DNA of 64,000 bases from Candidatus Woykebacteria bacterium (GCA_040876345.1 JBBDPM010000006.1:328547-392546); one strand, 5' to 3'. Numbered from the stretch's first letter, positions 5,052 to 31,482 are shown. Translations and numbers: made by a program. The notes: a model not told the origin generated them from the letters alone.

Positions 5052-5083
<32 letters not shown>

Positions 5084-5938: not shown

Positions 5939-5975
<37 letters not shown>

Positions 5976-6084: not shown

Positions 6085-6118
<34 letters not shown>

Positions 6119-6542: not shown

Positions 6543-6585
<43 letters not shown>

Positions 6586-6896
6586 CTTTCCCTATGTTAC
6601 TCCGATACTAGATCGAAGCGGTTGTGTTCCTTTTCAACCCTCTACGTCGCCGTAGAGATCGGACTATATCTTCCACTCATAGCTTTTAGCTAAGGGTGGT
6701 CTGACGTATAGTCTCTGAGGATTTCCACCACTTGGCGGATCTTTCCTGCTGATTGTCCGCACCAAACAGGTTGTCACATTTGTCATGCCAAAATAGTTTC
6801 GGCATCTAGATCCTGAAGCAAGTTCAGGATGACATTGTACTGTTGGATACACGGAGTTTCCAGCATTTAGTCAGATTTCTCTAAGGCAGCTTTCCT
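6586..6896 (-). mobile_element. ORF-less group I intron in 23S (H69-H71 region, near E. coli ~1931)
   Basis: Conserved CTAAGGT / AGCGAAATTCCTTGTCGGGTAAGTTCCGACC is split by 311 nt. It shares the S element (AAGATATAGTCC), a CAGAGACTATAC R-like element and ATGCTGGAAACTCCGT with the first intron. Confidence 0.6.
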
Positions 6897-8339
6897 ACCT
6901 TAGCACAGTTATAGTTACTGCGGACGTTTACCGTGGCTTCAGTCAGGAGCTTGCACCCCCTTCTTTAACCTTACGGCACTGGTCAGGCGTCAGGCCCTAT
7001 ACTTCCCCTTACGGGTTTGCAGAGCCCTGTGTTTTTGATAAACAGTCGCTTGAGAGTCTTTCGCTGCGACCCCGCCTCATCAGCGGGGCACGACATCTTC
7101 CAAAGATACGTCGAGCTTTTTTGCCGAGTTCCTTGAAGATCGTTCTCCCGTTCGCCTTGGTATACTCTACCTGCCCACCTGTGTCGGTTTGCGGTACGGT
7201 CAACATAAGCCTCACAACGAGCATTTTCTCGAAGTCTGAAAACGTTCCACCCCCACGCTCCTTGCGGTTTGCGAGGGCCATCACAGCTTGGATAAGACGT
7301 GAATCAGCGGATTTTCCTACTGCCACTTCCTAACTGCTTAGATACCATTGCAGAGCGGTACTGGAAGCTTCCACTCTTGTCAACCCTTTGTGTCTTTATC
7401 AGCTTACATTGGTAGCCGAATTTCAACGGCTTGTCCATCGCTTACGCCAGAAAACTGACCTCAGCTTAGGACCGACTAACCCTGGGACGATTGACGTTGC
7501 CCAGGAAACCTCGGGCTTTCGGCGAGGCGGGTTTTCACCGCCTTCTCGCTACTCATACCGGCATTCTCACTTCTTGGCAGTCCAGCAAGCCTTACAGCTC
7601 ACCTTCAACCCACCAAGAACGCTCCCCTACCCCTCGCCTTGCGGCGAAGCCGTAGCTTCGGTAATAGGCTTGAGCCCCGTTACATTGTTCGCGCACACTT
7701 CCCGAATCGACCAGTGAGCTGTTACGCACTCTTTAAAGGGTTGCTGCCTCTAAGCCAACCTCCTGGCTGTCTAAGGAAATATACTACGTTTCACACTAAG
7801 CCTATATTTAGGGACCTTAACTGACGGTCTGGGCTGTTTCCCTCTCGACTACGGAGCTTAGCCCCCGCAGTCTCACTCCTACCAAACATTTTGCCGTATT
7901 CGGAGTTTGGTTAGACGCCGCCTCTTGCGAAGCGACAATCCATCCAGTGCTCTACCCCAGCAAAACTATTAAATAGGGCTGCACCTAAATGCATTTCGGG
8001 GAGAACCAGCTATCTCCAGGTTCGATTGGCATATCACCTCTAACCACAGGTCATCCCAGCCTTTTGCAACAGACACGGGTGCGGGCCTCCAGCCAATTTT
8101 ACTTGGCCTTCACCCTGCCCATAGTTAGCTCACCTGGTTTCGGGTCTAAACTTAGCTGCTAATCGCCCAGTTAGGGCTCGCTTTCACTACGCCTCCCCAA
8201 GTCAAACTTGGTTAAACTCGCAGCTAATGTTAACTCGCCGGTTCATTCTTCAATAGGCACGCGGTCATCCCGCCGAAGCGGGACTCCCACTGCTTGTCAG
8301 CATCTAGTTTCAGGTCTATTTCACTCCCCTCACCGGGGG

Positions 8340-8380
<41 letters not shown>

Positions 8381-9004
8381 CTTCTTGGTATTTAGCCTTG
8401 CACCATGGTCGGCGCGGGTTCCCGCAGAATTTCACGTGCTCCGCGGTACTCAGGAATGTAACAAGAGATTTGTAAGTTTTGCGTACAGGTCTATCACCTT
8501 CTATGGAAGCGCAATTCCGGCGCTTTCTGCTACCTACAAACTTTGTAACTCTTTATCATTAAAGATAGTCACACCCTACAACACCCCGATAAATCGGGGT
8601 TTGGGCTGTTCCCCTTTCGCTCACCGCTACTTAGGGAATCACATTCGTTTTCTTTTCCTCTCCTTACTGAGATGTTTCAGTTCAGGAAGTTCCCTCCACT
8701 CGCGCTATGTATTCACGCAAGGGTACCGAGTTAGACTCGGTGGGTTACCCCATTCGGAAATCCCCGGATTAAGCGCTTGTTGACAGCTACCCGAGGCTTA
8801 TCGCAGTCTACCACGTCCTTCGTCGGCCAAGAAGACCAAGGCATCCACTAGATGCGTTAATAAGATCTTTAACTTTCCATCCAGTTGTCAAGGTGCCATG
8901 GCACGTTTCAACGTGTCATGTGTCAAAGTATCAAGAAAAACTTGACGCTCTGACACTTGACTAAACGTCTGTTTTAGAACCCCAAATTCCAAGGTCTCCA
9001 AGCG

Positions 9005-9081
9005 TGGTGGACCTGGTCGGACTCGAACCGACGACCTCCTCATTGCAAATGAGGTGCTCTAGCCAACTGAGCCACAGGCCC
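9005..9081 (-). tRNA. tRNA-Ala (anticodon TGC)
   Basis: Reverse complement gives a cloverleaf with G3:U70 identity pair, anticodon loop TTTGCAA and encoded CCA. Sits in the 16S-23S spacer. Confidence 0.9.
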
Positions 9082-9348
9082 ATGCAACAGAAAATCCGGC
9101 TCGATAAGCCGCCAATTCAAAAGGCAGATTGTACATATTTAATTATTATCTGTCTATAGGGAAAACTTTAAGAGGTTAGTGGTTAAGAGATAAACACCTG
9201 CTGTCCAACAGTTGATCTATCATCACTTAGCCTCAAAAAGAAACCCTCTCAATGAGAAAAACCTCATTACCACGGAATATAACACCGTTTTTATATAAAG
9301 TCAAGGTTAATTTGGGGTGATTATCAGTTGAAAAATGAGTGTGCTAAA

Positions 9349-9423
9349 TGGTGGGCACGGATGGGATCGAACCATCGACCTCGTCTTTATCAGAGACGCG
9401 CTCTACCACTGAGCCACGTGCCC
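9349..9423 (-). tRNA. tRNA-Ile (anticodon GAT)
   Basis: Reverse complement GGGCACGTGGCTCAGTGGTAGAGCGCGTCTCTGATAAAGACG...CCA, anticodon loop CTGATAA. Sits in the 16S-23S spacer. Confidence 0.9.
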
Positions 9424-9775
9424 TAAAGCCGCGCAAATTCTATCATAAACAGAAAAACCCCGCAAACCGGGGTTTCTCATTTTAACTCAAAATCTATAAG
9501 GAACGAACGTCCTTCTCCGAAACTCGGAGGCGACATGACCTCCATCGTGAATGGAGGCCTAGAGCCAATACTTTCGGCTCGGCTCCTTTGGCTTTGACCA
9601 GCTGGCTTCAAAAGACCAAAAGTCTCTGTGAAATTCCAGTGAATCTTAGAAAGGAGGTGATCCATCCCCAGATTCCCCTAGGGATACCTTGTTACGACTT
9701 AGCATTGATCGCCGAGTTCACCTTAGCCCCAATAAATTGAGTTTTCGGGTGCCCCCGACTTTCCCTACTTGACGG

Positions 9776-10648
9776 ATTGGAATAGCTTGAGGTTGCTTTC
9801 CGTTCCCACTTAGCAAGCCGATTTCCGGCACTAAGCGAGCCGAAATGTTTTTTAGCTCATTGTTAAGTGTGTTCATAGTGAGCTTTAACTGCCAAACTTC
9901 TTTAAGCTCCTTTTTACTTAATTTGCGCACGTCCTGACGATCTTTAACAATCTCAGCAACTCTAGCAAATCGGTTAAAGGACTCCGATTTAATACCCTGT
10001 AATTAATGTTCCTTGAAAAAAGGAACAATAATATTTTGGATATCACCTTGTCGGGTAATTTCAAAAACATATGCTGTTTTTCTTACATCATTACCCTGAG
10101 ACTTTACATAAACATACCCAATTTTGAAATAATCTAGAACTTTGTTCAAAAGTCCCCTAATATCAAACCGCTGGGTTATAAAATACCTCAGAATAATTCG
10201 ATGGTCAGTTCGAATCTGAACTGTAAAACACCCTTCACCATCAGTAAGCCCAACAATATAGTCGGCCGTTAACATTTCGTAGATTCCTTTCCCACCAAAT
10301 AATACACTGCATAATTTCTAGTGGGTACTATGAATCTGCAGACTTCCTATCAAGTATTTACCTCTACCTCGATAGGATCTCCTTGGGTCACATAAATAAC
10401 TTTTCCTGACATTCCATAAAGTACTCTTACTTAACGTTGAATTTCTCTCAAACCGCCCGGCTGAGATCACTCATTCGAAGTACTTCTTAACTCACGGACT
10501 GCCATTTGCCTCAGGCCCTCCACTCCAGAAAATTACTCTTCTAAAGCTGCCAGATTTTTTTGGCTACTATTACTCGTAGATTGGATTTTAACCAATTAGC
10601 TATTTATGCTGCCAAGCGCGATTTTATGTAGCGTTTTACTGCTACAGG
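9776..10648 (-). mobile_element. Intron in 16S near the decoding-centre 1400 region (class unresolved), carrying an interrupted LAGLIDADG ORF
   Basis: About 870 nt separate TTGTACACACCGCC from CCGTCAAGTAGGGAAAGTCGGG (h44). Boundaries are approximate, within about 5 nt. No group I S element was seen. Confidence 0.65.
10003..10275 (-). CDS. LAGLIDADG homing endonuclease, N-terminal segment (probably a decayed gene)
   Basis: 90-aa ORF with VGLTDGEGCF motif ending at a TAA (10003-10005). It is followed in the same frame, 24 codons later, by a 70-aa ORF (9718-9930) that runs into the predicted 3-prime exon. Confidence 0.75.
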   Translation of the reverse strand: MLTADYIVGLTDGEGCFTVQIRTDHRIILRYFITQRFDIRGLLNKVLDYFKIGYVYVKSQGNDVRKTAYVFEITRQGDIQNIIVPFFKEH

Positions 10649-10845
10649 CGGTGTGTACAAGAGGCGAGAACGTATTCAACGCGGTATGCTGACCCGCGTT
10701 TACTAGCAAGTCCATCTTCATGCGCTCGAGTTGCAGAGCGCAATCCGAACTGAGGGTGTATTTTTGCGATTGGCTCCAGATTGCTCCTTAGCTTCGTATT
10801 GTTTGCACCCATTGTAACGTGTGTGTTGCCCAGGATATAAGGGCT

Positions 10846-10877
<32 letters not shown>

Positions 10878-10951
10878 CCGTTTAGCGGGGCAGTTTCGCT
10901 AGAGTGATACAACTAGCGATGGGGGTTGCGCTCGTTACCCGACTTAACGGT

Positions 10952-10995
<44 letters not shown>

Positions 10996-11109
10996 AGGCT
11001 CCCCGAAGGGTCGTTCGCCTTTCAGCGTCCTAACACCTACATGTCAAACCCTGGTAAGGTTCTTCGTTTTGTCTCGAATTAAACCACACGTTCCCCTGCT
11101 TGTGCGCCT

Positions 11110-11159
<50 letters not shown>

Positions 11160-11944
11160 GACACTTAACGCGTTAGCTTACGACACCGAACCGTCACCAG
11201 CCCGATATCTAGTGTCCATAGTTTACGGCGTGGACTACACGGGTATCTAATCCGTTTTGCTCCCCACGCTTTCGTGCAACACCGTCATGATCCACCCAGA
11301 TGCCTGCCTTCGCCTTTGGTGTTCCAGTTGATCTCAACGCATTTCACTACTCCACCAACTGTTCCGGCATCCCCTTTGGATATCTAGTCTTGAAGTATCA
11401 CCACCAAGCTGTGGGTTGAGCCCACAGGTTTAAATGGTGACTTTCAAAACCGGCTGCGCACGCTTTACGCCCAGTAAATCCGGGTAACGCTTGGGCCCCA
11501 CGTATCACCGCGGCTGCTGGCACGTGGTTAGCAGGCCCTTATTCTCCTCGACACGACATCGAAGTAAAAGGAGTTTACAACCCGAAGGCCTTCATCCTCC
11601 ACGCGGCGTCGCTGCGTCAGGCTTTCGCCCATTGCGCAAGATTCCCGGTTGCTGCCACCCGTAGGTGTATGGCCCGTGTCTCAGTGCCATTGTGGGAGAT
11701 CATCCTCTCAGACCTCCTACCCGTCGAAGCCTTGGTAGGCCATTACCCCACCAACAAGCTGATAGGACGCGAGCCGCTCCTTTAGCGAGCAGTTATGCTC
11801 TTTGATCTTGCGATCACATGCAGTATTAGCCCACCTTTCGATGGGTTATTCTCCACTAAAGGGTACGTTCTCACGCGTTACTCACCCGTCTGCCACTCCC
11901 GCCCGAAGCGGGTCGTTCGACTTGCATGCCTAAGGCGCGCCGCT

Positions 11945-11976
<32 letters not shown>

Positions 11977-12238
11977 GAAAAAATTTGGCGCTGGCCAAAT
12001 TTCTGAAGACTTGATTGCTCAAATCAGACTACAGATTAATGCTGTAGACATTGTTACTCGAATTGACGTTCGTTCCTTATAAATTTTGAGTTTTCAAAGT
12101 GCACGGTGTTTCCCCTCCAACGAAAAAGAGCCCGCAAATACAAGCTCTTCTTGCGAATCAATGAAATGTGGTACCGAACCTTAAACTTTACATTTCGGCC
12201 TCATTCTAGTTCAAAATCTACCCTTTGTCAACCCTAAC

Positions 12239-12655
12239 TTACTTGTGCTTTCGGGTTGGTAAATATCTTTTTTTCAGTTGGTAAGAATCATAAGAGTCTC
12301 TATCCTTTGGATAATTCTTGAAAAAACGCCAGCTGAAAAAAGCAAGTAAAAATACAAGCGATAAGATATTAATAGCCCAAAAAGCGTGGGCGGAAAGGAA
12401 AGCAACACCTTCTTTTCTAAAAAATACAAATAACGCTCCTAATGCCCCAAAACCCACAAAACTCCAGGCTAACGGGGCAATATATTTACCAATTAGAGGA
12501 TTTTTAGACGAGCCAAATTTTAAGTATATACCGATAATAACCCCCGCGAAGAAGAGCAAAGCGAAAAATGTTAAAAACCAAATCAATTCATCCCAATCGT
12601 TTCGTCCCGAACTAACCCAAAACCGCACGTCTATAAAATCATTAAATTTGATCAT
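12239..12655 (-). CDS. Hypothetical membrane protein
   Basis: 138-aa ORF with 3-4 hydrophobic helices. Confidence 0.4.
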   Translation of the reverse strand: MIKFNDFIDVRFWVSSGRNDWDELIWFLTFFALLFFAGVIIGIYLKFGSSKNPLIGKYIAPLAWSFVGFGALGALFVFFRKEGVAFLSAHAFWAINILSLVFLLAFFSWRFFKNYPKDRDSYDSYQLKKRYLPTRKHK

Positions 12656-12721
12656 TTTTGATATATTTATTTACATTAAAGTTATCAATTACCTAAATAT
12701 AACTTTGTATAACCTTTTGTA

Positions 12722-13819
12722 TCAATACTCATCAATAATTCCTCCACCAAGAACCTCCGCGCCATCATATATAACAACTACCTGACCTGGAGTTACCGCT
12801 TTTTGCGGCTCGCTGAACTTCACTCGAACCACATCTGTATCGATAGACTCAATCCTAGCTTCCTCCAAAGGCTGCCGATAGCGGATTCTAGCCTGCAATC
12901 GATCGCCAGATTTAGGATTCGACCCAATCCAATTTAAATTTGTAGCGACTAACGACCTCTTGTAAAGCTCCCTGGACCCAACCGGCGCAACAACCAACTT
13001 ATTGGGCTCCTTTCGCTTTTCAACCACGTAGTGAGGCACAGACGAGCTCACACCTACACCCGCACGTTGCCCTATCGTATAAAAAGGTATGCCGTCGTGT
13101 TTTCCAATAGTCTTACCGTCCGTGTTAACTATCTGCCCTTCCTTTGGTTTAATTTTTTCTCTAAGAAACTCTGCCAAATTTACTGGCCCAACGAAGCAAA
13201 TTCCTTGGCTATCAGGCTTGTTTGCAGTCGGCAGACCAGCCTCGGAAGCAAGTTTTCTAACTTCACTCTTAGTGTAATCTCCAATCGGAAAAATAGCCTT
13301 TGCTAGCTGATCCTGCGTTAAAGTGTAAAGGAAGTAGGACTGATCCTTGGCAAGATCCAGTCCTGCGTAAAGATGGTAGCTCGATTTTCGATTTTTATCT
13401 AATATCAAAGATCCAGCATCCGACATCCTAATTCTGGCATAATGTCCAGTAGCCACATATTCAAATCCAAGCTCAAGCGCTTTCTTGAGAAATATCCCAA
13501 ATTTAATCTCCTTATTACATATAACATCGGGGTTTGGGGTGCGGCCAGCCTCGTATTCGGAGAAAAAATAGTCGATAACACGCTCTTTGTACTCTTTCTC
13601 AAAATCAAAGATACGGAAAGGAATACCTAAGCACGCGGCAACTTTTGCAGCATCAGCCCTATCTTTTTCCGTAGAACAATATGGACCGGTGTTCCAGCAC
13701 TGCATGTAAGCTCCTTCAATGTAGTAACCTTGGTTTTTTAGTAGTACTGCTGCAACAGAACTATCCACCCCACCGGAAAGAGCCACCAGTACTTTTTTTG
13801 CTTGACTCGATTTTGACAT
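12722..13819 (-). CDS. mnmA: tRNA-specific 2-thiouridylase
   Basis: PP-loop SGGVDSS near N-terminus, with MnmA-type C-terminal domains. Start assigned to the internal Met before the KKVLVALSGGVDSS block. Confidence 0.85.
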   Translation of the reverse strand: MSKSSQAKKVLVALSGGVDSSVAAVLLKNQGYYIEGAYMQCWNTGPYCSTEKDRADAAKVAACLGIPFRIFDFEKEYKERVIDYFFSEYEAGRTPNPDVICNKEIKFGIFLKKALELGFEYVATGHYARIRMSDAGSLILDKNRKSSYHLYAGLDLAKDQSYFLYTLTQDQLAKAIFPIGDYTKSEVRKLASEAGLPTANKPDSQGICFVGPVNLAEFLREKIKPKEGQIVNTDGKTIGKHDGIPFYTIGQRAGVGVSSSVPHYVVEKRKEPNKLVVAPVGSRELYKRSLVATNLNWIGSNPKSGDRLQARIRYRQPLEEARIESIDTDVVRVKFSEPQKAVTPGQVVVIYDGAEVLGGGIIDEY

Positions 13820-13962
13820 GGGGGAAATTTTAACACAGATGAGGCTAAGTTTGAAGCATGAGTATTGACTAAAGAGATTACAGTTACCAAGCAACAATAA
13901 TCAAATGATTATCATGTCTACGAAAATTTAGGAGCTTGGGATTAGTTTATTTGAATTTAATC

Positions 13963-16251
13963 TTATGGAGGAAGTTCTTCGAAGAGGACGTTAGAGTCAC
14001 CCAAAATATTGCGAAAAAGCCAAAGGTATTTTGGTTCGAATAGAAACCTCTCAGATGGCCTATCAAAGTTGTCCGAATTTAGATTCCTTTGTAAATTAAA
14101 ACCTCCGAAAGCTAAAACTGACCCATTGATAGTTAATCGCTCGTCGCCAGCATGAGAATTAAACACACCATTAGAAATGTAAACTCCATCTAATGTCTTA
14201 ACATCGTCATCTTCCACCAAAATATTACCGTTAACAATGAAAACAAGGCCTTTATCGGAATCAACCTCTACGTCTTTTTCTATTCTTAAGTCTCCATTTA
14301 CAAATATCACGGCGCTATCACCGTGATAATCTATTTTATTGTCAATAAGTGGGGATAAAGCACCGCCTGGATTAAAGAGTAATATTTTTGAGCTAGAAAT
14401 TCCTGCAGCGTTATCAATTCGACTATCTCTAATACAATAAATACAGGGTCCCGGACCCGTAAGAGCGCCGATTTCTCTAGCTTCATACTTATTTTTAAGG
14501 GTAGCGTAAATATCAGCACTTCCCTCTAACGAATCTGAATTAGGCGAATTAGCAGCGGTTGAGTTAAACGGATAGCCACCAACCAACCAGTCCTTAGCAG
14601 AAGTAAAATTATTTATTCCTCCATCCACAAGGGTGAGGTAACTAGCGTTGTCCTCGGGCGGCGAAGATCTATTCATATCAATTCTGGCGGTCGCCAGAGT
14701 GCGATCTAACACTCCAACCGTTCCGTCGGTAGTTTTTATCCACGGGTCATAATCAGCAAGGATTGTAATCGCTCCTTTATTCAGCTCGAAAACTTGGTCT
14801 GGTTCGACCGTACCATTGGGAAGCAGGTAACCAACTATACCCCCAAGATCTACATCGTAAGGAGGAGTGTTTCTAGGTAACACTGTATCATTCACAGTTA
14901 CCGTTAACAGTATACAAAAATAGTTATAATTACTTTCTAGAGGTACTCCGAAGTTGACAAAAATACCTCTTTGGCCAAAGAAGTTAAAGTTTTTAATTAT
15001 TGTGCCCGGTACGGTAATATCTGTTGAAGTGTCGTTAAACAGTCCTGATGCATTTACGTTATTACCTCCCGCACCACAGCCGTAAATCTGATCTTCGAGT
15101 TTCCAAACTTCCCAATCATCAATCTGAACTACATTAAACCCGGGGATAGTTTCAAAAACGTTAACATTAAGCCGATCAATAAGTATCGGATCATAATCCG
15201 ATCTTATCCGATTTTGTATTTGCTCATATAGGGTTTCGAGGTCACTGTTGTCTGGTGCAAAAAAGAAATTAAACGGGCTATTTGGATCGTTTGTATATGG
15301 ATTGCTGTCTGGTGGAACACTCCTACAATCAGGATCCGTTATACACGCAACATACTTCATGTATTGAATACCAGTAGTTATTGATGCCGGGCAGTCCACG
15401 CATCCTCCTGGATCAAAACTACCCGTGGAATCAGAACCAATTCCCACTGTTATAATTCTTATGTTATTGGTGATGGCCTTTTGCAATGGAGTTGGGTCTC
15501 CCGGGCCTCCAGGACCGCCGCCAAAACTAACGCCTGGGATTCCTGGATCTATTGGGGAAAAAACACTTGGCCATCTATTTTGTAATCCGTCTGTAGCTAA
15601 AACCACGTATTTTGGAACATTTGACCTGCCATAGTGTAAAATCTGTCTATTAGCTAATTCCAAACCAGCTCCAATTGGGGTAACTCCATTTGGCGCTAGC
15701 ATAGAATTTATATCACCATTCAAATTAATTTTGCCTGGTGAATTCATAGCTTTAAAAGCATCTAGTAATGCGTTATTACCACTACTACTTTCCACCCTAG
15801 CGCAATTTAAAATATTTACACCACTACCATTGTTACACGTACCGTTAACGTTTTGATACGATGTGAGCCCAACCTTATCCCATTCCTCCACTGTGCCACC
15901 TGCAGGAGCGTCCCATTCAGTTTGATTGATAAAGGCGTGGAGCGCTTGTTTTGCAGCATCGTATTTTGTCCCGCTGCCCCAAGGCTCAGCCATACTTCCA
16001 CTTAGATCCATTACAAGCATAGTATCTGCCTTTTGCCTAATATCAAGAGTCTCCTTCGGAATATATATTGGCACTTTAACTTGCTGTCCATGTCGAGCTG
16101 ACGGTGGGATTGGTGGGTCCTTTATTGGGTTCTGTATCTGAGCCATAGCCTTATTCGGGTAAGACAAGCCAAATTGCGATATTAGAAGTGCAATTATTAA
16201 ACTTGCATAAACTGGTTTTTTTAATTTATTAATCATTAAATAAACTTTCAT
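13963..16251 (-). CDS. Secreted von Willebrand factor A (VWA) domain protein, 762 aa
   Basis: N-terminal signal/anchor. MIDAS motif DLSGSM and a TDG motif. Gly/Pro-rich linker. Its C-terminal beta-helix-like module and terminal motif are shared with the 1640-aa neighbour. Confidence 0.75.
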   Translation of the reverse strand: MKVYLMINKLKKPVYASLIIALLISQFGLSYPNKAMAQIQNPIKDPPIPPSARHGQQVKVPIYIPKETLDIRQKADTMLVMDLSGSMAEPWGSGTKYDAAKQALHAFINQTEWDAPAGGTVEEWDKVGLTSYQNVNGTCNNGSGVNILNCARVESSSGNNALLDAFKAMNSPGKINLNGDINSMLAPNGVTPIGAGLELANRQILHYGRSNVPKYVVLATDGLQNRWPSVFSPIDPGIPGVSFGGGPGGPGDPTPLQKAITNNIRIITVGIGSDSTGSFDPGGCVDCPASITTGIQYMKYVACITDPDCRSVPPDSNPYTNDPNSPFNFFFAPDNSDLETLYEQIQNRIRSDYDPILIDRLNVNVFETIPGFNVVQIDDWEVWKLEDQIYGCGAGGNNVNASGLFNDTSTDITVPGTIIKNFNFFGQRGIFVNFGVPLESNYNYFCILLTVTVNDTVLPRNTPPYDVDLGGIVGYLLPNGTVEPDQVFELNKGAITILADYDPWIKTTDGTVGVLDRTLATARIDMNRSSPPEDNASYLTLVDGGINNFTSAKDWLVGGYPFNSTAANSPNSDSLEGSADIYATLKNKYEAREIGALTGPGPCIYCIRDSRIDNAAGISSSKILLFNPGGALSPLIDNKIDYHGDSAVIFVNGDLRIEKDVEVDSDKGLVFIVNGNILVEDDDVKTLDGVYISNGVFNSHAGDERLTINGSVLAFGGFNLQRNLNSDNFDRPSERFLFEPKYLWLFRNILGDSNVLFEELPP

Positions 16252-16895
16252 TTACCTATTGGTAACGACTCAAAAGAGTCTCCTGCGTAAACACTAAATC
16301 CTGAATCAACTAAAGATTCGTGGCCTCCTTCAATCACATAAATTTTTTCTGTTTCTAGCGTTTTCCGCAGTTCGTTTGCTGCTTTTTTTACCTCATCTAA
16401 ATCATCTTTGCTACCATACAAAGCCACTTTTTTCCCCTTTAGAAAAACCAATAATCTACTATTTTCAAGCTCGGTGACTGGAATATTTAGTGAATTCTGG
16501 ACATGACCTTTATAAAACTCTTCTTTCGGTCGGGTATCTACCAAAAACAGACCTCCGTTTTGAGTTAATTGGTAAACTGTACTTTTTTCTATAAAAACCA
16601 GCTGCGCATCTTCAGTCTTTTTGAAGCTATCTGCAGATACAACTTGGGGCAATGTTGACAAATACCAAATGTAAGTGCCTCCTAAAATCACCACTACAAA
16701 AACTACTGCACTAACACTCCAAACCGGGTGTTTGCCGAGTCTTTTGGTGAAATAAGTAAAGTTAAATCGGAGCTTATCCGACTTCAAGAATAGAGGAATT
16801 ATGAAGGTTACAAAGATTGAGAGAAATACCAAACCAACTAGAAAAACAAAGATTTGCTCCGGGGCGATTTGGGCAAAATTTCCTATTTTTATCAT
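16248..16895 (-). CDS. Membrane-anchored rhodanese-like domain protein (catalytic Cys not evident)
   Basis: Two N-terminal TM helices and rhodanese signature LVDTRPKEEFYKGHVQNSLNIP. There is a 4-nt overlap with the downstream VWA gene. Confidence 0.6.
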   Translation of the reverse strand: MIKIGNFAQIAPEQIFVFLVGLVFLSIFVTFIIPLFLKSDKLRFNFTYFTKRLGKHPVWSVSAVVFVVVILGGTYIWYLSTLPQVVSADSFKKTEDAQLVFIEKSTVYQLTQNGGLFLVDTRPKEEFYKGHVQNSLNIPVTELENSRLLVFLKGKKVALYGSKDDLDEVKKAANELRKTLETEKIYVIEGGHESLVDSGFSVYAGDSFESLPIGK

Positions 16896-17078
16896 TTAGG
16901 CAGCTGTCTTCTAAACTACTTTAATTATACGAAGGCTATTTCAGTAAGTCAATAACAGCCTAACTTCTAATAATAACCAAATCTCAATGATCAATAATCA
17001 AACAAATTCCAAATACCAATGCTCAAAAATTCCGGATTTGAAAATTAAAAAATTAAATATTGTTTGGTTATTAAACTT

Positions 17079-17537
17079 CTAATTACTTCGCACTGCAATA
17101 ACGATGGCGACGAGTACAGTAATCACTTGAGTCGCCACCCCTGGCAAAACACTCATTGGCTTTTTCCAATGGAACTTCATGTGAAGTTTGTGGTAGCGGG
17201 AAAGCGCTTCTGGGCCAAAAATCACTTGGATAATATGATGAAAATCGGGCAAGATTGCGGCGATCCCCCCAATCCACATCAGTTCTCCAACGGGGCTATT
17301 AAGAGCAAGAACAGCTAAAAGTCCAAGACCAAAAAGAAGATCAGCTGTCAAAAACAGCACTTCCTTTTTCTCAAGATCCTCCACTTCGATGTAACCTTGG
17401 ATATGCGGAATTGAGTCAAAAACAAAATGGGACGCTGCTGCCACTGGGACAACTTGCCAAGCCTCAGGCAAAGCGCTTCCAATTGCTGCACCTACAAGTA
17501 GATGTGGAGTAGTCAACATATATACTAATAATACCAA
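17079..17537 (-). CDS. YdjM/DUF457-like membrane-bound metal-dependent hydrolase
   Basis: 152 aa. N-terminal THLLVGAAIG motif and multiple TM segments. Confidence 0.5.
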   Translation of the reverse strand: MVLLVYMLTTPHLLVGAAIGSALPEAWQVVPVAAASHFVFDSIPHIQGYIEVEDLEKKEVLFLTADLLFGLGLLAVLALNSPVGELMWIGGIAAILPDFHHIIQVIFGPEALSRYHKLHMKFHWKKPMSVLPGVATQVITVLVAIVIAVRSN

Positions 17538-17655
17538 ATGTCAACGCTCAAATGTCAACTTCTTGACTGCGCTCGAAGAGTATTTTACCTAACCTTGTCG
17601 AGATACTATTCGAGCGAACAAAATGAGTCGAGAACTAATATACTGTTTATTTTAC

Positions 17656-18246
17656 TCAAAAGGTAGCCAATCCGAAAAGATTAAAAATATAGTATACAAC
17701 GAATATTGCGAGAATTGCGGCGATACTTACTTGCGAAAGGGTGTGGTGGCCAAGGTAAATTCGGCACCAGCCGATCAAAGGTATCAAAAAAAAGACGGGT
17801 AAAAAGGCGCTTGAATACACAAGCAAAAGAGTTAAAACCAGAAAGCTCGCCGCCATAATATGGATACTAATTTTCCAATAAATTGTCGCTAGGCTTGCAA
17901 GCGCAGCAAGTGAGGTAAGGCTGAGGGTAGTAGCAAGCAGAAGCCTTGGCACATCTATATATAAATATATCAAACTCAAAACTACTGATCCAATAAGCCA
18001 GGCGAGGTGAACATCTCTGCGCTGCTCTCGATTAGTGATAAACCAATCTGTAATCTTCCCTTTTCTTTTCTCATATAAGAAAACTGCCACGGCTGGAGCC
18101 CCACCAATAATTAATCCAAGAGCTGACCAGAGAAATTTATCAGAAAAATCTGTATCAACTTTGATAAAGACTAGAAGCAGGGCAAGAGATGCAGTTAGGA
18201 AAGGCTCAGTGATGTAGGAAATTAAAAGGGCCGCTCTCTTCAGCAT
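17656..18246 (-). CDS. PAP2-family membrane phosphatase
   Basis: 196 aa. KISIH and RIYLGHHTLSQV blocks resemble PAP2 motifs. Start abuts the stop of the 1640-aa gene. Confidence 0.55.
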   Translation of the reverse strand: MLKRAALLISYITEPFLTASLALLLVFIKVDTDFSDKFLWSALGLIIGGAPAVAVFLYEKRKGKITDWFITNREQRRDVHLAWLIGSVVLSLIYLYIDVPRLLLATTLSLTSLAALASLATIYWKISIHIMAASFLVLTLLLVYSSAFLPVFFLIPLIGWCRIYLGHHTLSQVSIAAILAIFVVYYIFNLFGLATF

Positions 18247-21200
18247 TTAGGGTGCTACTTCCAGCCTTCCACCTCGATCTTCGCCAAGAAGTGAAAAGTC
18301 TACTCCTGGATCAATCCTTGCAAAGTAATAAAGGTAGGCGGGGTCAAAATTGAATATCTCGGATGGATCAGTCACGTTACCTCCCCCCAAATCTCTTCCT
18401 AAACTGTAGCCTTCCCAAGCAGTAACACCGCCATTTACTGTCAAACTACAGTCAACACACCCTCCCTCGGCTGGTGCGATAGTGTAAAAGGATGAGGGAG
18501 AGTTTTGATTATTACAGCCAGTTTTTATCCAGCCAATCGTGCGGGCTACGCTGGAAACGCGCACTTCATCTATTTTGGCGTCGACGAATTCCTGTCCCCA
18601 AGTAGGATTTCCCCCAATGTAGAGATCCTTATCCGATGAGTATATGTTAGCCGTCGAATTTTGGTACCTTACATCGCAAAGATTACTGCTCGATGATGGA
18701 CCCATCACCATCAATTCTCCAGGATGTCTATATCTAGTACCAACATGAGACCAAGTATTAAGTGGAAGTGCTTGGAGGTTTGCACCAGAAATAGTATTTT
18801 CGCTACCTCCACTACATGCAGTTGTTATTTGGCTCAAAGGCTTATTGAGATTATCCTTTGCATAAATAGTATAGGAGTGGTGGGTTGGGCTTGCTGCTCC
18901 ACACATTTTAGAAACAACTGACTTCCATCCACCCAACCAATCTGGCTTTATCCAAGCCTCCAGGGTAAGAGCGCTGGTTGCGTCAAGAGAATTACTATCG
19001 GTCACACGTACCCAATCCCCAGTATTATCTGCACCTGAGAAATCTTGGGCTTTACCAATTAGTCCGTCTATTTCGGCCGGGCCAGTAGTCAGAGTTCTTT
19101 TTGTACCAGTGTTACCATTACCAGTGCTGTCAGCTACGGTGGTGCCAGAACCATTCATATGAAGCACCATAGAATACCCGCTATTCCAAGTTGCATTATC
19201 ATTTGTCTCATTAGCAGCGCTATTGCCGTAATATATGTAAAGCTCTGTGTTAGCACTTGTTGAAAGACTTGGTGCTCTAAACCAAAGCTCTCCGGTGTTG
19301 GATCCAGCGTCAATGCTCACCAACTCCCGATAAAGCTTTGAGGTTCCATCTCCGGAAGTAACCACAATATCCCCACCGTCACTTTGGACGTTGCTAAAGA
19401 AGCCTGATCCCAAATCTGCCAAATTCACATAAACTGGGAAATCGCTGTGACTGCCCACGGCAGGATCGGTCGGGAGCAACCCGGTAGAATTCACTTGTGA
19501 ATAATTAACGGTAAGTTTCTTGCGGAATTGCCAATCAGTATCGTACCAATTTGCTGGACCGCCAGCCTGGGCAATTCCACTATCAAATCCTTTGTTGGTC
19601 ACAAAAAACCCATCTATGGTGCTCACTTGCCCATCTACAGAGATGCCTTTTTTCACAATGAAAACCGCTTTTCGGTTGCCAAGATCAAGATCAGATTCAA
19701 TATTTAGGGCGCCATTTATAAATAGGACGACGGTGGAATTCCCAGATTGAACGGCCCCACTACCCCAAGTAAAATTAGCCTCGTCGGCTGGATTTCCGGA
19801 TTTAATTGAGGCTACGCTAGGGTAAGCATAGACTCCCCCGTTTGCCGGTGCTGTTGGCGTTGGCAAAGTACCGTTAGTTGGATGGTTCTTGGCTCTTTTT
19901 CCACCAAACTCGCTCCAGAGCTCTCCAAATAAATCATCTGAGGTAAACCCTGTATTAATAGAACCATAACCTTCGACTAACCAATCTGTAGCACTTACCA
20001 AACCGTTTATACTATCTTTTGCAACCACTAAGAAATCGGCGCTTGTTTCCAAAGTTATGTGTAAGTTTATGTCCTGCACTGTAATATAATCCGTAATGCT
20101 ATCCGCCAGTGGTTCATCACTACGAAGTTCCCATTTAGTAATTCCCCCCTGATTTATACCAGCAAGGTCCGTAACCTGAAAGCTAAACCTGTTACCATTA
20201 CCAGTGGGGTCGGAAAACCCCTGAGTGTCAAGGACATTGAATTTACCGTCCATTGGTTGATTGTCGGCAAAATCATAGTCATTTGGAGGAGCGTGATAGT
20301 CTACATCGGGGCTTCCAGTCCAATTTTTGCGCACCAACCCCACCTCAATACCGGGATTAGTACCATTTGAATCTACACCACTGTCCAAAACTTTAAAGCT
20401 GACAGAAGCACCGCGAATATTAAACCCAGGTTCTATAGTTGTGGTATCAAAAGCAAGGTAAGTGCGCCTCATTAAACTACCGCTGTAAAACCCACTGTGA
20501 CCAATGCCTCCCGATAGGGGGCCTCCAGAGGCTCCATCGGGTGGGGAGGGTATAGGCGTCGTCCAGTTTTGACCGGTTATTCCATGACTAGATTCATATG
20601 AAGCGCTCGTCGGGCTGAAACTATCACTCTTCCACCAGGTGGTCAGTTTAATGTTTCTTATTAAAAAATAGTTATTAGCGGACGGCAAGCTGCAGAAGTC
20701 CTTAAAAGGGGGTGATGTATTGGTCTGGCAGTTTGCCTTAAGTTCAAACTTAGTATTGCCACCAACCACAATATCATTTTTATTAATTCCGTAATTTACC
20801 ACGATACCAGAAAGAGGGTTAGGTAGTGTAGACGTATTAAAGAGAAATTTTCCCGGATAAGTAGTGGCAGACTGCTGATCCAAGTGCCAATTAGTATCAA
20901 GAGTATTCCCCGGCCAGGACCACTCTTTCCTAACTATTTGGACATCAAAATTTCCCGCCGCTATATCTTTGTTAAAGACATCAAAACTAATCTCGGCTGC
21001 TAGCACCTCTGAGCCCTGAGGAATGCCGGATGTATTGAAATTTAGGTAAGAACGTATGTAATTATTACCTGATGATTGATCATAACCAACATATCCTTGA
21101 CCAGCACTAACGGCAGCGTGGTCTGGAGGCGGTAAGGAGTCAGCAGTGGAATTGGGGTGGAGAATGGAGCGAGAAAAATCTGAGCCTGCAGTAAGGGAAT

Positions 21201-23169
21201 TAGCAGTGTTATTTGCTAAAACTTGCTTTGGGGTATCGACATTTATATTTCCGTTCGCACTCAAATCCCCAACAGTGGTCTTTAACCAAGCTATTTCTTT
21301 AACTATCACCGTTACGGTTCCCGTATCAACAACTGTTGGATACGAAAAATCAGATTCTGAAGTTGCTTTAACAGTTAAAATATAAGTGCCGGGTGCTTGG
21401 TTAAGAGTAGTGATGGTGAAATTTGTAAGGGAAGACCCCGGGGGGTGAGACACTTTCCTGGGATTCCAAGGATTAGAGTTGTCCGCCACTTTAAAATCAG
21501 CTGGACTGCAAGGATCTGGATCGCAATCTATTACACTCATTAATGCTTTTGACGTAATTGGCCAGCCAACACTCCAGTTTATAGAAATATCAGTACTGTT
21601 GGAACTGTTTATCCCCATGGGAACTGGGCTTGGGGAAACAACATCCAAAGTAACATCTAATTTATTCGTGATACCAAGAAGAATAGAGCTAGAACTTGTC
21701 GAATAAGCAAAGCTGTAAGCAGCCGTCCTACAGTTATCAAGAGGCTGGTTGGGCAAAGTGCAAGTTGGAGCGGGTGCGCCGTTATATGTTTGCGAAACTC
21801 CATCGTTACTACACGGTGCTCCCCCTGCATCATTACAATACCACTTTGAAAGATAAGCCGACCATAAATCTCCACCAGATGGGCCTATGCCAGGATCCAC
21901 AGTAAATTGAGCATCGGAAACACCTTTAGTGTAACCAGCTGTCCCAAAGCTATTTACATTTATCTCAACGGCATTGAAATCGTAAAGTCTTGCAATCAAC
22001 TGAGCAAAACTGTTCGAACCTCCAAAAGCCTCATCGGAATCAAAAACTCCATCAGCGTCTTTATCATTAAAGAATGTCAAAATAAAGTTATCACCAGCAC
22101 CACCACAATTGTGCCAGTTGCTCCAACCAGCCGGGCTCCCAACTGAATCCACGGTTGCATTACGAGCTCGGTACTGAAATTCATAGCGGTGGCCGGCAAC
22201 TCCGTTAAATGTGTAAGGTGATGCCGGCGAACTAGTGGTGTTGAAAAGATCATACCAGCTTCCTCCGTTCATATCTCTAGCTTGCAGCCACCGTTGAGCT
22301 ATCGTAGAATCTGTATCTGAAGCAGAATGAAAAATCCTTACATCATAGTCACCGTTTGATTTACCCACGTATTCTTTTGTACAACTTACCGTTGCTGGCG
22401 AAAGATCAATCCCAAAGAACCACCAGCTGTTTCCAGAGCTCCAAGCAAGTCGGTGTGGAGAAGCACCTGTATCTTTGCCTTCAATACCCCATCCATACCA
22501 ACCATTGGTAAGTCCAGCTGCACTCAAATTTGTGGTGTAGGGAGAGGCGTTGTTAACGGCGAAAGTTCTTGTGGTCGTGATCCCAGTACCAGTATTGTAA
22601 ATTTTTTGGGTTATATTAGTTATGTTTCCGCCACCTGCTGGTGAAGTTAAAGTAACGTTATAAGCAGTTGGGTCGTAATTAAGCCAGTTTCCTGAAACTG
22701 GAGTGTTGTTTCTTGTGTTGGTGGCGGAGGCCGTTGTTGTAAGAGCTGTAGTATCCGTAACCCGGGTGGTACCAGAGTAAGAAACTGAGTCCACCCCACT
22801 ACCCCAAAAATCATGGTACCCAGGCTCCACTACGTGAACCCAAAATCTGTGGACCGATGCCGACATTGGCGTAATCTGACAAGAAGTAACATTAGTGCAG
22901 GTTTTGGTAGGAGTTCCGGTGGTCGTGTCCACCCAAATCTCGATGAGATCGGCTGTTATGGAAGCTGCCGAAGCATCGGTAACAGAGACAGTGTAAGAAG
23001 ACGCCGGTCCTAAGAGAGAGCGAGTAATCCAACCATATCCACCAGCTGCTTGGGCATGAACCTCATTTTTGTTAAAAATCGCCGGATAAGAAAGTAAAAT
23101 AAACACCAGAGTTGTTACAAAGAAAAAACCTATGCAAATTTTTTTGAGATACCCACTAATAAACTTCAT
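18247..23169 (-). CDS. Giant secreted surface protein (1640 aa) with LamG/concanavalin-A-like domain
   Basis: N-terminal signal anchor and Thr/Ser/Asn/Gly-rich composition. LamG_3-like block (VADSTGNGNTGT...GKAQDFSG...WVRVTDSNSLD...TLEAWIKPD). Shares a beta-helix-like module and C-terminal motif with the VWA protein. Confidence 0.8.
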   Translation of the reverse strand: MKFISGYLKKICIGFFFVTTLVFILLSYPAIFNKNEVHAQAAGGYGWITRSLLGPASSYTVSVTDASAASITADLIEIWVDTTTGTPTKTCTNVTSCQITPMSASVHRFWVHVVEPGYHDFWGSGVDSVSYSGTTRVTDTTALTTTASATNTRNNTPVSGNWLNYDPTAYNVTLTSPAGGGNITNITQKIYNTGTGITTTRTFAVNNASPYTTNLSAAGLTNGWYGWGIEGKDTGASPHRLAWSSGNSWWFFGIDLSPATVSCTKEYVGKSNGDYDVRIFHSASDTDSTIAQRWLQARDMNGGSWYDLFNTTSSPASPYTFNGVAGHRYEFQYRARNATVDSVGSPAGWSNWHNCGGAGDNFILTFFNDKDADGVFDSDEAFGGSNSFAQLIARLYDFNAVEINVNSFGTAGYTKGVSDAQFTVDPGIGPSGGDLWSAYLSKWYCNDAGGAPCSNDGVSQTYNGAPAPTCTLPNQPLDNCRTAAYSFAYSTSSSSILLGITNKLDVTLDVVSPSPVPMGINSSNSTDISINWSVGWPITSKALMSVIDCDPDPCSPADFKVADNSNPWNPRKVSHPPGSSLTNFTITTLNQAPGTYILTVKATSESDFSYPTVVDTGTVTVIVKEIAWLKTTVGDLSANGNINVDTPKQVLANNTANSLTAGSDFSRSILHPNSTADSLPPPDHAAVSAGQGYVGYDQSSGNNYIRSYLNFNTSGIPQGSEVLAAEISFDVFNKDIAAGNFDVQIVRKEWSWPGNTLDTNWHLDQQSATTYPGKFLFNTSTLPNPLSGIVVNYGINKNDIVVGGNTKFELKANCQTNTSPPFKDFCSLPSANNYFLIRNIKLTTWWKSDSFSPTSASYESSHGITGQNWTTPIPSPPDGASGGPLSGGIGHSGFYSGSLMRRTYLAFDTTTIEPGFNIRGASVSFKVLDSGVDSNGTNPGIEVGLVRKNWTGSPDVDYHAPPNDYDFADNQPMDGKFNVLDTQGFSDPTGNGNRFSFQVTDLAGINQGGITKWELRSDEPLADSITDYITVQDINLHITLETSADFLVVAKDSINGLVSATDWLVEGYGSINTGFTSDDLFGELWSEFGGKRAKNHPTNGTLPTPTAPANGGVYAYPSVASIKSGNPADEANFTWGSGAVQSGNSTVVLFINGALNIESDLDLGNRKAVFIVKKGISVDGQVSTIDGFFVTNKGFDSGIAQAGGPANWYDTDWQFRKKLTVNYSQVNSTGLLPTDPAVGSHSDFPVYVNLADLGSGFFSNVQSDGGDIVVTSGDGTSKLYRELVSIDAGSNTGELWFRAPSLSTSANTELYIYYGNSAANETNDNATWNSGYSMVLHMNGSGTTVADSTGNGNTGTKRTLTTGPAEIDGLIGKAQDFSGADNTGDWVRVTDSNSLDATSALTLEAWIKPDWLGGWKSVVSKMCGAASPTHHSYTIYAKDNLNKPLSQITTACSGGSENTISGANLQALPLNTWSHVGTRYRHPGELMVMGPSSSSNLCDVRYQNSTANIYSSDKDLYIGGNPTWGQEFVDAKIDEVRVSSVARTIGWIKTGCNNQNSPSSFYTIAPAEGGCVDCSLTVNGGVTAWEGYSLGRDLGGGNVTDPSEIFNFDPAYLYYFARIDPGVDFSLLGEDRGGRLEVAP

Positions 23170-23738
23170 GGTAAAATAAAAATCTCCCTAGCTGAAAAGC
23201 TTTCTTTGCCAAAAAAATTCTCGACTGCCAAAATTTGAACTTGATTGTTCTTTTTCAAAGAATTTATCGAAAGGGTTTGTACTTTATTTTTAACTGAAGT
23301 GGAACCGCTAGCTATGCTTTCTGCTGGAGTGCCTGAGTTGGGCAAAGGTATAATCTTAATTTGATCAATTCGACTCACGTCTATACTATAAATTGTCCCG
23401 GTACTGTCTTCTTTGACTTTAACTAGCCTACTCTTTTCATCCACCTCTTCCACCTTTCCTTCCACCATGAACTTTTGCCCTTCTTTTTGGCCCTCTTGAC
23501 TGCTTTTTTTATCGTTTAATTTTTTGTTGGTTAATAAAGAAGGTAAGCTCTCCTTTATAAAGAAGAGGGCTCCGACAATAGCCAAGGCTACAATTAACAA
23601 AGCTATAATGAAAACTCCTACTCTTAAGATTCGAGGAGCGTTTGGTAAAATATTTGTTTGAAAATCTAAAAGGATTCTGGTTAGAGAATTTGCGGTGTAA
23701 GACTTTACCTCTTGTGGAGCTTTATCCTTTTTTTCCAT
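23166..23738 (-). CDS. Membrane-anchored hypothetical protein, first gene of the surface-protein operon
   Basis: 190 aa with a single TM helix. There is a 4-nt overlap with the start of the 1640-aa gene. Confidence 0.55.
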   Translation of the reverse strand: MEKKDKAPQEVKSYTANSLTRILLDFQTNILPNAPRILRVGVFIIALLIVALAIVGALFFIKESLPSLLTNKKLNDKKSSQEGQKEGQKFMVEGKVEEVDEKSRLVKVKEDSTGTIYSIDVSRIDQIKIIPLPNSGTPAESIASGSTSVKNKVQTLSINSLKKNNQVQILAVENFFGKESFSAREIFILP

Positions 23739-24115
23739 AGGCAGGTATAAATTTATTCTAAAGCTAAAGCTCTCCGAAAGTCAATATAATTACAATCAAT
23801 ATTGCTTAACTAGTTTTTAATTTCATTATATTAACTGCGCAATTGATCGGTTAGAGCAGGTGCCAAAACATCCTCTAGTGTTTTTCCGGGGTACTATAAT
23901 ACTGCAAAACACCCGTGAAACGAAAATCCTGTATTGAAAAGTTAACTTTTGAGTAATATATTTATTCTCTTATATGGTATTTGATAGACTAATATGTATT
24001 CTATTATGACAAGTACTGAGGTTTATTGGTGATTGAATAGTTAAAAAGTCTATTTATCCATACAATACTAAATCTTAATGATAAGTACTCTAGGACTCTG
24101 CCTTTGGGATTCTAT

Positions 24116-30981: not shown

Positions 30982-31482
30982 TCAGGCGCAGACGGTGTTG
31001 GTGGTCAGGTTGTAGTAGATCCGGGAGCTCTCGCCTTCCGTGTAGTGTTCCCAGATCATGTGTACGCTCTTCCCACGGTCGCAGATGAAGCCGTGCCAAC
31101 CAGGGAAAGACACGTTGTTGTGAGGCGCGACGGAGATGTAGTCACATGGCCCGCTGTAGCCGCAACCGACCGTGCCGTAAAGACCACCGTAGACCCACTC
31201 ACCTGTCCAATTGAACGGCTGATTCCACCTGAACCGGTAGTGGAAGGAGACGATGGTGGCGAAGTCCACGTTCGGATCCGGCGCGCCCGGTTCGAAAACG
31301 ATGTCGGTCGACGCCCGGATTCCCAGAGTATGGTCGGACGGGTCCGGCGCGTAGTACTGCCGCCAAGCGTACGTCCAGGTAGTCGCATGGTCCATGTGAC
31401 CAGCGTCGGCCTGAGACGTCAGCACCGCCATACCTCCGAGCATCGTGGCGATGATCGTCGCTGTGAGGATCAACCGCTTCAT
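30982..31482 (-). CDS. Secreted hypothetical protein (island gene A)
   Basis: Start at internal Met with GGGAGG Shine-Dalgarno. Signal peptide MKRLILTATIIATMLGGMAVLTSQA. ATGA overlap with gene B. Confidence 0.55.
   Translation of the reverse strand: MKRLILTATIIATMLGGMAVLTSQADAGHMDHATTWTYAWRQYYAPDPSDHTLGIRASTDIVFEPGAPDPNVDFATIVSFHYRFRWNQPFNWTGEWVYGGLYGTVGCGYSGPCDYISVAPHNNVSFPGWHGFICDRGKSVHMIWEHYTEGESSRIYYNLTTNTVCA

Follow-up and report, generated by a model that had tools for sequence, protein, structure and literature searches.

The two largest genes at positions 13963-23738 of a 64,000-nucleotide (nt) stretch of Candidatus Woykebacteria DNA (GCA_040876345.1, JBBDPM010000006.1:328547-392546; the whole stretch is hereinafter the window) encode secreted proteins of 1640 and 762 amino acids (aa) that share a C-terminal module, and each of the two genes directly follows a gene for a small membrane protein. 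With moderate confidence, we read the locus as two cassettes, each comprising a membrane partner and a modular surface adhesin that would be held or assembled by its cognate partner. The organism belongs to the Microgenomates group of the Patescibacteria, or candidate phyla radiation (CPR), and the 762-aa protein is 100% identical to a "vWA domain-containing protein" listed by NCBI for a Candidatus Woykebacteria bacterium, encoded on a 586-kb contig. Positions 13963-23738 hold six open reading frames (ORFs), all on the minus strand:

23738..23166, minus strand: 190-aa gene (ORF)
23169..18247, minus strand: 1640-aa gene (ORF; secreted protein, hereinafter the giant)
18246..17656, minus strand: 196-aa gene (ORF)
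17537..17079, minus strand: 152-aa gene (ORF; probably 146 aa from the ATG at 17519)
16895..16248, minus strand: 215-aa gene (ORF)
16251..13963, minus strand: 762-aa gene (ORF; secreted protein)

An earlier note on this DNA had described six co-directional genes with overlapping or abutting ends that form one operon. Strand and coordinates stand, and three junctions are tight. Specifically, stop and start share an ATGA 4-nt overlap at the 190/1640 and 215/762 junctions, and the TAA of the 1640-aa gene abuts the ATG of the 196-aa gene. The other two junctions are gaps, of ~120-135 nt (196/152) and 183 nt (152/215). Comparison with related loci resolves the six genes into two repeated two-gene cassettes (190+1640 and 215+762) and two further genes that are tied to them by synteny only.

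Pairwise alignment of the two large proteins is significant, as expected from the module that the earlier note had proposed. BLASTP returns two colinear high-scoring segment pairs (HSPs): the first joins residues 1033-1197 of the giant to residues 525-699 of the 762-aa protein (E = 8e-9, 31% identity), and the second joins residues 1573-1619 to residues 703-749 (E = 1e-8, 47% identity). The module starts earlier than first described, because 'AWLKTTVGDLSANGNI' (residue ~625 of the giant) aligns with 'PWIKTTDGTVGV' (residue ~503 of the 762-aa protein), and the initial coil of both proteins carries the pattern W-[IL]-K-T-T-x-G-D. The 762-aa protein consists of a VWA head with a metal-ion-dependent adhesion site (MIDAS), an unassigned middle, and an uninterrupted C-terminal module. 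The giant consists, from N to C terminus, of a Sec-type N-terminus, an unassigned beta-rich region of ~580 aa, and a module broken by two insertions. DUF2341 and Laminin_G_3 score above their Pfam cutoffs between the two HSPs, in agreement with the claim that a LamG insertion splits the shared block. The pieces are as follows (HMM, hidden Markov model; i-E, independent E-value):

13966..14751, minus strand: C-terminal module of the 762-aa protein, aa ~501-762, ending ...FEELPP-COOH (HMM E 2.7e-69)
21196..21297, minus strand: giant, module piece 1, initial coil, aa ~625-658, 'AWLKTTVGDLSANGNI...' (aligns with the start of the 762-aa module)
20050..21117, minus strand: giant, insertion 1, two tandem DNRLRE-like repeats, aa ~685-865 and 866-1040 (NCBIfam, BLASTP)
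19555..20049, minus strand: giant, module core, helical segment and beta-solenoid coils, aa ~1041-1205 (first HSP, HMM i-E 2.8e-22)
19192..19380, minus strand: giant, DUF2341, aa 1264-1326, part of insertion 2 (Pfam PF10102, 32.7 bits; cutoff 23.4)
18535..19029, minus strand: giant, Laminin_G_3/concanavalin-A-like lectin domain, aa 1381-1545, insertion 2 (PF13385, E 2.2e-13, 51 bits; cutoff 27.6)
18250..18453, minus strand: giant, module C-terminal piece, aa 1573-1640, ending ...RLEVAP-COOH (second HSP, HMM i-E 1.9e-12)

Piece 1 of the giant taken alone is a weak HMM domain (i-E 0.037) and is found at the same place in giant homologues; the three-piece pattern as a whole recurs in giant homologues of other metagenomes. 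Insertion 1 spans ~390 aa directly after the initial coil. Its internal repeat is detected by BLASTP (E = 3e-9), and DNRLRE_dom (NCBIfam NF033679) matches two stretches of the giant at 27.1 bits, below the 34-bit cutoff. The giant is identical in sequence to protein P0007 of a public collection.

The module defines a very large family. An exhaustive HMMER search of 1.84 billion representative proteins with the module profile returned 3,996 representatives (50%-identity clusters) at E ≤ 1e-3 and 1,643 at E ≤ 1e-10. Word-indexed protein searches gave 4 matches with the 762-aa protein, 2 with the module alignment, and 3 with a 23-sequence module alignment. In nearly all of the top 150 proteins the match reaches the last residue. 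Conservation is highest in the last 28 residues of the module (2.3 bits per column); 136 of 152 sequences end in ExxP, 63 of them in EVAP. Invariant polar or aromatic residues are W61, Y66, Y88, R228, E240, Y248, and E265. No Pfam or NCBIfam model recognizes the module, and a PDB sequence search with its profile gave nothing at E ≤ 10. An NCBIfam "lipo-invert putative C-terminal anchoring domain" in one relative (P0061) was considered and rejected, as the match covers 34 residues immediately upstream of the module and scores below cutoff. Searches of the open-access literature turned up no account of the module, its ExxP C-terminus, the lipo-invert domain, rhodanese/VWA pairs in CPR, or the association of module proteins with membrane-anchored, catalytically dead rhodanese proteins. 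In two independent assemblies (L004 2889-5435 and L005 2408-4954; related loci are numbered in this way), a VWA-module orthologue is split at the module start into ORFs of 646 and 176 aa; a frameshift or pseudogene would explain this, as would a gene that truly consists of two pieces. A 280-aa protein that contains little beyond the module (27% identity) is encoded on a contig assigned to "uncultured Gammaproteobacteria" (L008 4640-5479), so that the contig is misbinned or the module also occurs outside CPR.

The AlphaFold2 (AF2) model of the module, computed from 48 sequences, has a mean predicted local distance difference test score (pLDDT) of 78.8 and a predicted template modeling score (pTM) of 0.77. 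It places N-terminal strands first, followed by helices, a stack of short strands, a short helix, and the conserved coil tail. The AF2 model of residues 600-1640 of the giant (17 sequences) is poor (pLDDT 45.5), with confidence confined to the module pieces; the module core is its sole long stretch at pLDDT 83-95. Foldseek top matches of the module model in the PDB are DUF3494 ice-binding beta-solenoids (E 6e-3, probability 1.0, template modeling score (TM-score) 0.40-0.49), and DUF3494 proteins are again first in the viral library BFVD (E 2e-3). Other matches are PL6 lyases, at poor E-values, and the solenoid of the competence pilin ComZ (6qvi, E 0.25).

Members of the DUF3494 family, or type 1 ice-binding proteins (PF11999; 3vn3, 4nu2, 3uyv), are likewise secreted bacterial proteins; the predicted module seems to resemble their discontinuous right-handed beta-solenoid, and they are the top match in both libraries. 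One study describes DUF3494 topology as an initial coil, a helix, and stacked coils, an order that the predicted module seems to follow, and it reports "non-canonical DUF3494" proteins, a precedent for DUF3494-like folds missed by Pfam (Raymond 2024, PMC11645318). However, PF11999 (Ice_binding) finds no match even at E ≤ 10 in the 48 members tested, TM-scores stay at 0.4-0.49, and there is no sign of ice binding. The module also differs from DUF3494 proteins in its almost invariably C-terminal position, its ExxP-COOH tail, the other heads and inserted domains found with it, and its membrane partner. A sub-threshold likeness of the solenoid core to DUF7305 (PF23981) is seen in 6 of 48 members (best E 2.5e-4), with 12.9 bits for the window protein against a cutoff of 27; no mention of DUF7305 was found in the open-access literature. 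Judged from the model, the relation to DUF3494 is one of fold resemblance rather than membership, and the module would at best be a remote, unrecognized relative of DUF3494 or DUF7305.

The heads joined to the module vary. Among 48 full-length members, 17 have VWA, 12 CARDB, four dockerin, three fn3, and one PA14, and Ig-like heads also occur. The head of the 762-aa protein, which the earlier note had called a VWA/MIDAS domain, is confirmed by a VWA_2 score above the Pfam gathering cutoff (31.6 versus 27 bits; VWA itself is just under, 22.7 versus 23.8) and by an intact MIDAS motif, made up of D82-L-S84-G-S86, T191 (TPIGAG), and D219 (LATDG), which is kept in orthologues P0002-P0004:

15427..16023, minus strand: VWA domain of the 762-aa protein, aa ~77-275 (Pfam VWA_2, VWA; MIDAS motif)

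At least 85 of 102 full-length representatives have a Sec-type hydrophobic N-terminus. Neither window protein has a C-terminal transmembrane helix or hydrophobic segment, or an LPXTG-type or PEP-CTERM-like sorting signal (the giant has a single LPxTG-like string, well inside the protein at aa 828), and no SLH, LysM, or other wall-binding signature appeared in Pfam and NCBIfam scans. Because a C-terminal transmembrane helix and an LPXTG-type signal are lacking, the module is the only obvious shared candidate for retention or assembly. Together the data support the view that this CPR bacterium secretes both large proteins as modular, adhesin-like surface proteins.

The small proteins encoded upstream are both membrane-anchored, and they differ in their ectodomains:

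16248..16895, minus strand: 215-aa partner, hairpin of two transmembrane segments, K/R-rich loop predicted cytoplasmic, rhodanese-homology ectodomain
23166..23738, minus strand: 190-aa partner, K/R-rich N-terminal tail, hydrophobic segment at ~aa 39-62, small beta-rich ectodomain

The 215-aa protein scores 35.5 bits against Pfam Rhodanese (PF00581, cutoff 22.2), so that the fold assigned in the earlier note holds, but the catalytic cysteine is missing; the protein contains no cysteine at all. Likewise, the 16 rhodanese-like partner homologues have no cysteine in the ectodomain, and nearly all have none in the whole protein. Because of this lack of cysteine, the rhodanese-like partners cannot be sulfurtransferases and cannot feed MnmA, and the 215-aa protein is predicted to carry an inactive rhodanese-homology domain. 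By the positive-inside rule, the K/R-rich hairpin loop would place the ectodomain outside the cell. A sulfur relay from the rhodanese-like protein to the adjacent MnmA is ruled out, since the domain is cysteine-free and predicted to lie outside the membrane.

The 190-aa protein matches no Pfam family above cutoff. An orthologue in locus L001 (163 aa, E 1e-20) occupies the same position. Jackhmmer ties the 190-aa protein to the family of partners with two transmembrane segments via one relative (L020_180); this sole link lies in the N-terminal membrane region and may be inflated by hydrophobic composition. The idea that the 190-aa partner is a divergent rhodanese was rejected, as hhalign against the rhodanese-partner profile gave a probability of 1.8%.

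Pairing of partner and module genes was examined in the window and 22 non-redundant related loci, which together contain 27 module genes with an intact 5' end. A transmembrane protein of <400 aa is encoded directly upstream on the same strand of 24 of the 27, at a distance of -59 to +161 nt, in most cases between -17 and +21 nt; in two of the three remaining cases, a contig end interrupts the sequence. Sixteen of the partners, the window's included, match the HMM of the 215-aa transmembrane rhodanese type, and three match the 190-aa type. Partner ectodomains include rhodanese-like domains, small beta domains, and others, while the N-terminal membrane region is perhaps common to them. Tandem arrays comprise three to four pairs in L014 and two to three each in L013 and L017.

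The usual gene block consists of a PAP2-like gene, at least one pair of partner and module protein, mnmA, and a gene for a 138-aa transmembrane protein. The window block has the 190+1640 pair in front and the 146/152-aa gene inserted after the PAP2-like gene. The six-gene order is kept in L001 (a JGI contig, in which the VWA protein is 41% identical) and partly in L009. Genes of the bAvd/23S_rRNA_IVP type lie near module-protein arrays in L001 (12845-13261) and L009 (21230-21598); bAvd is an accessory protein of diversity-generating retroelements.

The favored reading, two cassettes of partner and adhesin, can be put in mechanistic terms. Each cassette would encode a small membrane-anchored partner and, translationally coupled to it, a modular surface protein exported by Sec. 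As their common base, the surface proteins would have the C-terminal ~250-aa beta-solenoid module with a DUF3494-like fold and the tail ...[FYW]-x-E-x-x-P-COOH. This base would carry swappable N-terminal heads (a Mg2+-dependent VWA/MIDAS head in the 762-aa protein; CARDB, PA14, fn3, or dockerin in relatives), and its loops would tolerate whole inserted domains (in the giant, two DNRLRE-like domains and DUF2341 with LamG). The partner, exposing a dead rhodanese-like domain (215-aa) or a small beta domain (190-aa) outside the membrane, would hold or assemble the module protein at the cell surface. The heads would then bind ligands, most plausibly glycans and proteins of the host cell or matrix, the bacterium being ultrasmall and probably host-dependent; the LamG and DNRLRE-like domains are probably glycan-binding, and binding by the VWA/MIDAS head would be metal-dependent.

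Membrane-anchored private partners encoded in the operon of their client are known from other systems, such as the Lif/LipB foldase and TapA for TasA fibers. Lif, for example, is a membrane-anchored, lipase-specific foldase encoded beside its lipase. In these systems too, a small N-terminally anchored protein is encoded beside a secreted client, one to one. However, there is no sequence or domain relation to them, and the partner here has an inactive rhodanese-like or small beta ectodomain.

Several points weigh against the cassette reading. We infer, rather than observe, contact between partner and module and the retention of the module protein at the surface. The adhesive role is likewise suggested by domain types alone. 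The fold similarity to DUF3494 is weak (TM-score <0.5, E ~1e-3), and the Pfam Ice_binding model is unmatched. That whole domains are inserted in the module speaks more for an exposed scaffold than for a buried anchor. The partners are heterogeneous whereas the tail of the module hardly varies, which fits a different, conserved binding target at least equally well. No fusion of partner and module was found among ~160 family members. Finally, the loci used for pairing come from a narrow pattern search (scans of genomes, metagenomes, and viruses with back-translated patterns gave 3, 16, and 0 loci, respectively); they are probably all Woykebacteria-like and may not represent the whole family.

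The alternative that survives best, although we consider it unlikely, is that the partner is a private steric chaperone, similar to Lif, that folds the beta-solenoid after Sec export, and that the module is the functional end, a beta-helix binding or degrading a polysaccharide or an ordered surface in the manner of tailspikes, pectate or alginate lyases, or DUF3494 proteins. This would account for the one-to-one, translationally coupled pairing and for the conservation of the module rather than the heads, with its invariant polar and aromatic residues; the PL6 lyases among the beta-helix fold matches, poor as their E-values are, point the same way. However, no enzyme family matches at a meaningful score in sequence or fold, and the heads are classical binding domains. 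The present data fit a foldase and an anchor alike.

It is less probable that the large proteins are envelope proteins of the surface-layer (S-layer) type, in which the module self-assembles or binds a conserved wall polymer via its tail and the partners are only loosely related. A tail that is near-invariant across thousands of proteins while partners vary speaks for such an arrangement, and several paralogues per genome, clustered in arrays, are consistent with it. However, the absence of SLH, LysM, and other wall-binding signatures from the scans argues against it, polymerization is unsupported, and the tight pairing with a partner is left unexplained.

The genes between and beside the two cassettes bear on a further alternative, namely that the cluster is no functional unit. 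The two between the cassettes encode polytopic membrane proteins:

17656..18246, minus strand: PAP2-like protein, 196 aa, six transmembrane segments (Pfam PAP2 below threshold)
17079..17537, minus strand: 146/152-aa polytopic membrane protein with His/Asp motifs SHFxFDSxPH and LPDFHH (by eye)

The label PAP2 phosphatase in the earlier note corresponds to a sub-threshold score (PF01569, 23.2 bits versus a cutoff of 27.2); 'KISIH' and 'CRIYLGHHTLSQ' resemble PAP2 motifs C2 and C3 by eye, and C1 is not recognizable. The label YdjM-like hydrolase for the 146/152-aa protein is not borne out, as this protein matches no Pfam or NCBIfam family at E ≤ 0.1, PF04307 included. PAP2-like orthologues (58-59% identity) adjoin module-gene arrays in L001, L002, L007, L009, L013, L015, L017, and L019. 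Orthologues of the 146/152-aa protein (65-68% identity) are present in L001 and L009 only and are missing from the other arrays. With 58-68% identity to their orthologues, the two proteins are more conserved than the surface proteins (~40%).

Downstream, mnmA lies 65 nt from the 762-aa gene, with no terminator-like hairpin between them. Together with a 138-aa gene for a protein with three transmembrane segments (window 12239-13897), mnmA trails module arrays in L002, L004, L007, L011, L014, L019, L024, and L026; in L004 and L011 another rhodanese-like partner gene comes next after the 138-aa gene. Gene order is deeply conserved here, although the genes have no obvious link in function. Because mnmA is equally syntenic, synteny alone cannot assign the PAP2-like and 146/152-aa proteins to the system; they are conserved neighbors and may be housekeeping envelope proteins.

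The three best sigma-70-like matches on the minus strand lie upstream of, or at the start of, the 190-aa, 146/152-aa, and 215-aa genes:

23755..23784, minus strand: promoter-like site TTGACT-18-TAGAAT, upstream of the 190-aa gene (consensus match only)
17515..17544, minus strand: promoter-like site TTGACA-18-TATGTT, at the start of the 146/152-aa gene (consensus match only)
16924..16952, minus strand: promoter-like site TTGACT-17-TATAAT, 11/12, upstream of the 215-aa gene (consensus match only)

These sites hint that the cluster may comprise up to three transcription units; it is only a hint, because promoter-like sites overall are not commoner than in shuffled sequence.

According to the alternative, the genes would be neighbors by descent in a small, syntenic genome, with housekeeping envelope roles for the PAP2-like, 146/152-aa, and rhodanese-like proteins. 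The equal synteny of mnmA and the 138-aa transmembrane gene, functionally unrelated as they are, agrees with this, as do the promoter-like sites that split the cluster and the far higher conservation of the PAP2-like and 146/152-aa proteins. However, tandem arrays contain copies of the whole partner-module pair, and this pair occurs with a start/stop overlap in all 17 non-redundant loci besides the window that hold an intact module gene. Because the overlap is kept in all 17, drift hardly explains the pairing, and we regard the alternative as very improbable.

Least supported of the alternatives, and highly doubtful, is the idea that the VWA protein and the giant are type IV pilus tip adhesins that dock via the module on minor pilins: PilY1/PilC proteins likewise combine Sec export, an N-terminal VWA/MIDAS domain, and a distinct, possibly docking C-terminal domain, the ComZ solenoid is a weak Foldseek match, and DUF2341 has been annotated, at second hand, as pilus-related (PMC11809585), but the C-terminus here is a predicted beta-solenoid with no match to the PilY1/PilC beta-propeller, the prepilin motif G-[FILMVY]-[ST]-L-x-E is absent from both window proteins and from all 102 full-length relatives, a scan of 36 ORFs of the 64-kb window and the gene tables for related loci revealed no type IV pilus or minor-pilin gene, and the constant neighbor is a non-pilin membrane protein. 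The PilY1 analogy drawn in the earlier note is thus unsupported.

The pairing of a vWA module with a concanavalin-like lectin module is also seen in the Streptococcus sanguinis proteins PilB (vWA) and PilC (lectin), which are reportedly true modular pilins with class III signal peptides on a monoderm surface. Here, unlike in PilB and PilC, the N-termini are of Sec type and the common module is C-terminal rather than N-terminal. Of the host-interaction apparatus proposed in the earlier note, the secreted adhesin-like proteins remain, while the pilus-tip analogy and the single six-gene apparatus do not.

Other features of the window lie outside the cluster. An island of ~3.2 kb at 31000-34200 has 56-63% GC in a genome of ~40% GC. 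It contains several minus-strand ORFs with signal-peptide- or lipobox-like N-termini, including a 412-aa ORF with dockerin-like repeats (by eye). The island has no Rfam match at E ≤ 0.1; of its ORFs, the 412-aa one alone was searched, and it has no Pfam or plasmid tblastn match. The island, which would encode secreted proteins, was probably acquired horizontally. A complete rRNA operon on the minus strand (4630-11981) has a group I intron in the 23S gene (6640-6954), a short 16S gene (1402 nt for a full-length model match), and an unusually long spacer of ~1.15 kb between the 16S gene (ending at 10580) and tRNA-Ile(GAU) (9349-9423). A tRNA-Ile gene with anticodon UAU (60481-60555, minus strand) represents an uncommon bacterial way of reading AUA, and two tRNA-Met(CAU) genes lie next to each other at 56305-56531. 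Tandem Fpg/Nei DNA glycosylase paralogues (40800-41633 and 42190-43023) are notable in a reduced genome.

The locus leads to a very large, nameless family whose members combine one type of C-terminal module with exchangeable heads and have a membrane partner of their own. Apart from type IV pili, little is known about how ultrasmall CPR bacteria recognize and hold on to a host. VWA, LamG, DUF2341, and the rhodanese fold are of known kinds, and there is a realistic chance that their combination here belongs to a distinct CPR surface-display system. A broader version of this idea is tentative and, in our judgment, rather unlikely: an undescribed, lineage-wide display system in which Sec proteins marked by the solenoid and its ExxP tail would each be captured by a co-translated anchor, consisting of a transmembrane hairpin and a dead rhodanese-like or small beta ectodomain, and the heads displayed in this way (VWA, LamG, CARDB, PA14) would serve as the main host-attachment organelles of CPR bacteria, independently of pili and sortases. 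If the pairing proves to be a physical anchor or assembly system, it would provide a searchable signature for candidate CPR adhesins, a concrete protein pair, and a new extracellular role for catalytically dead rhodanese domains. If the pairing is not physical, the module would still be a new domain family worth a Pfam entry.

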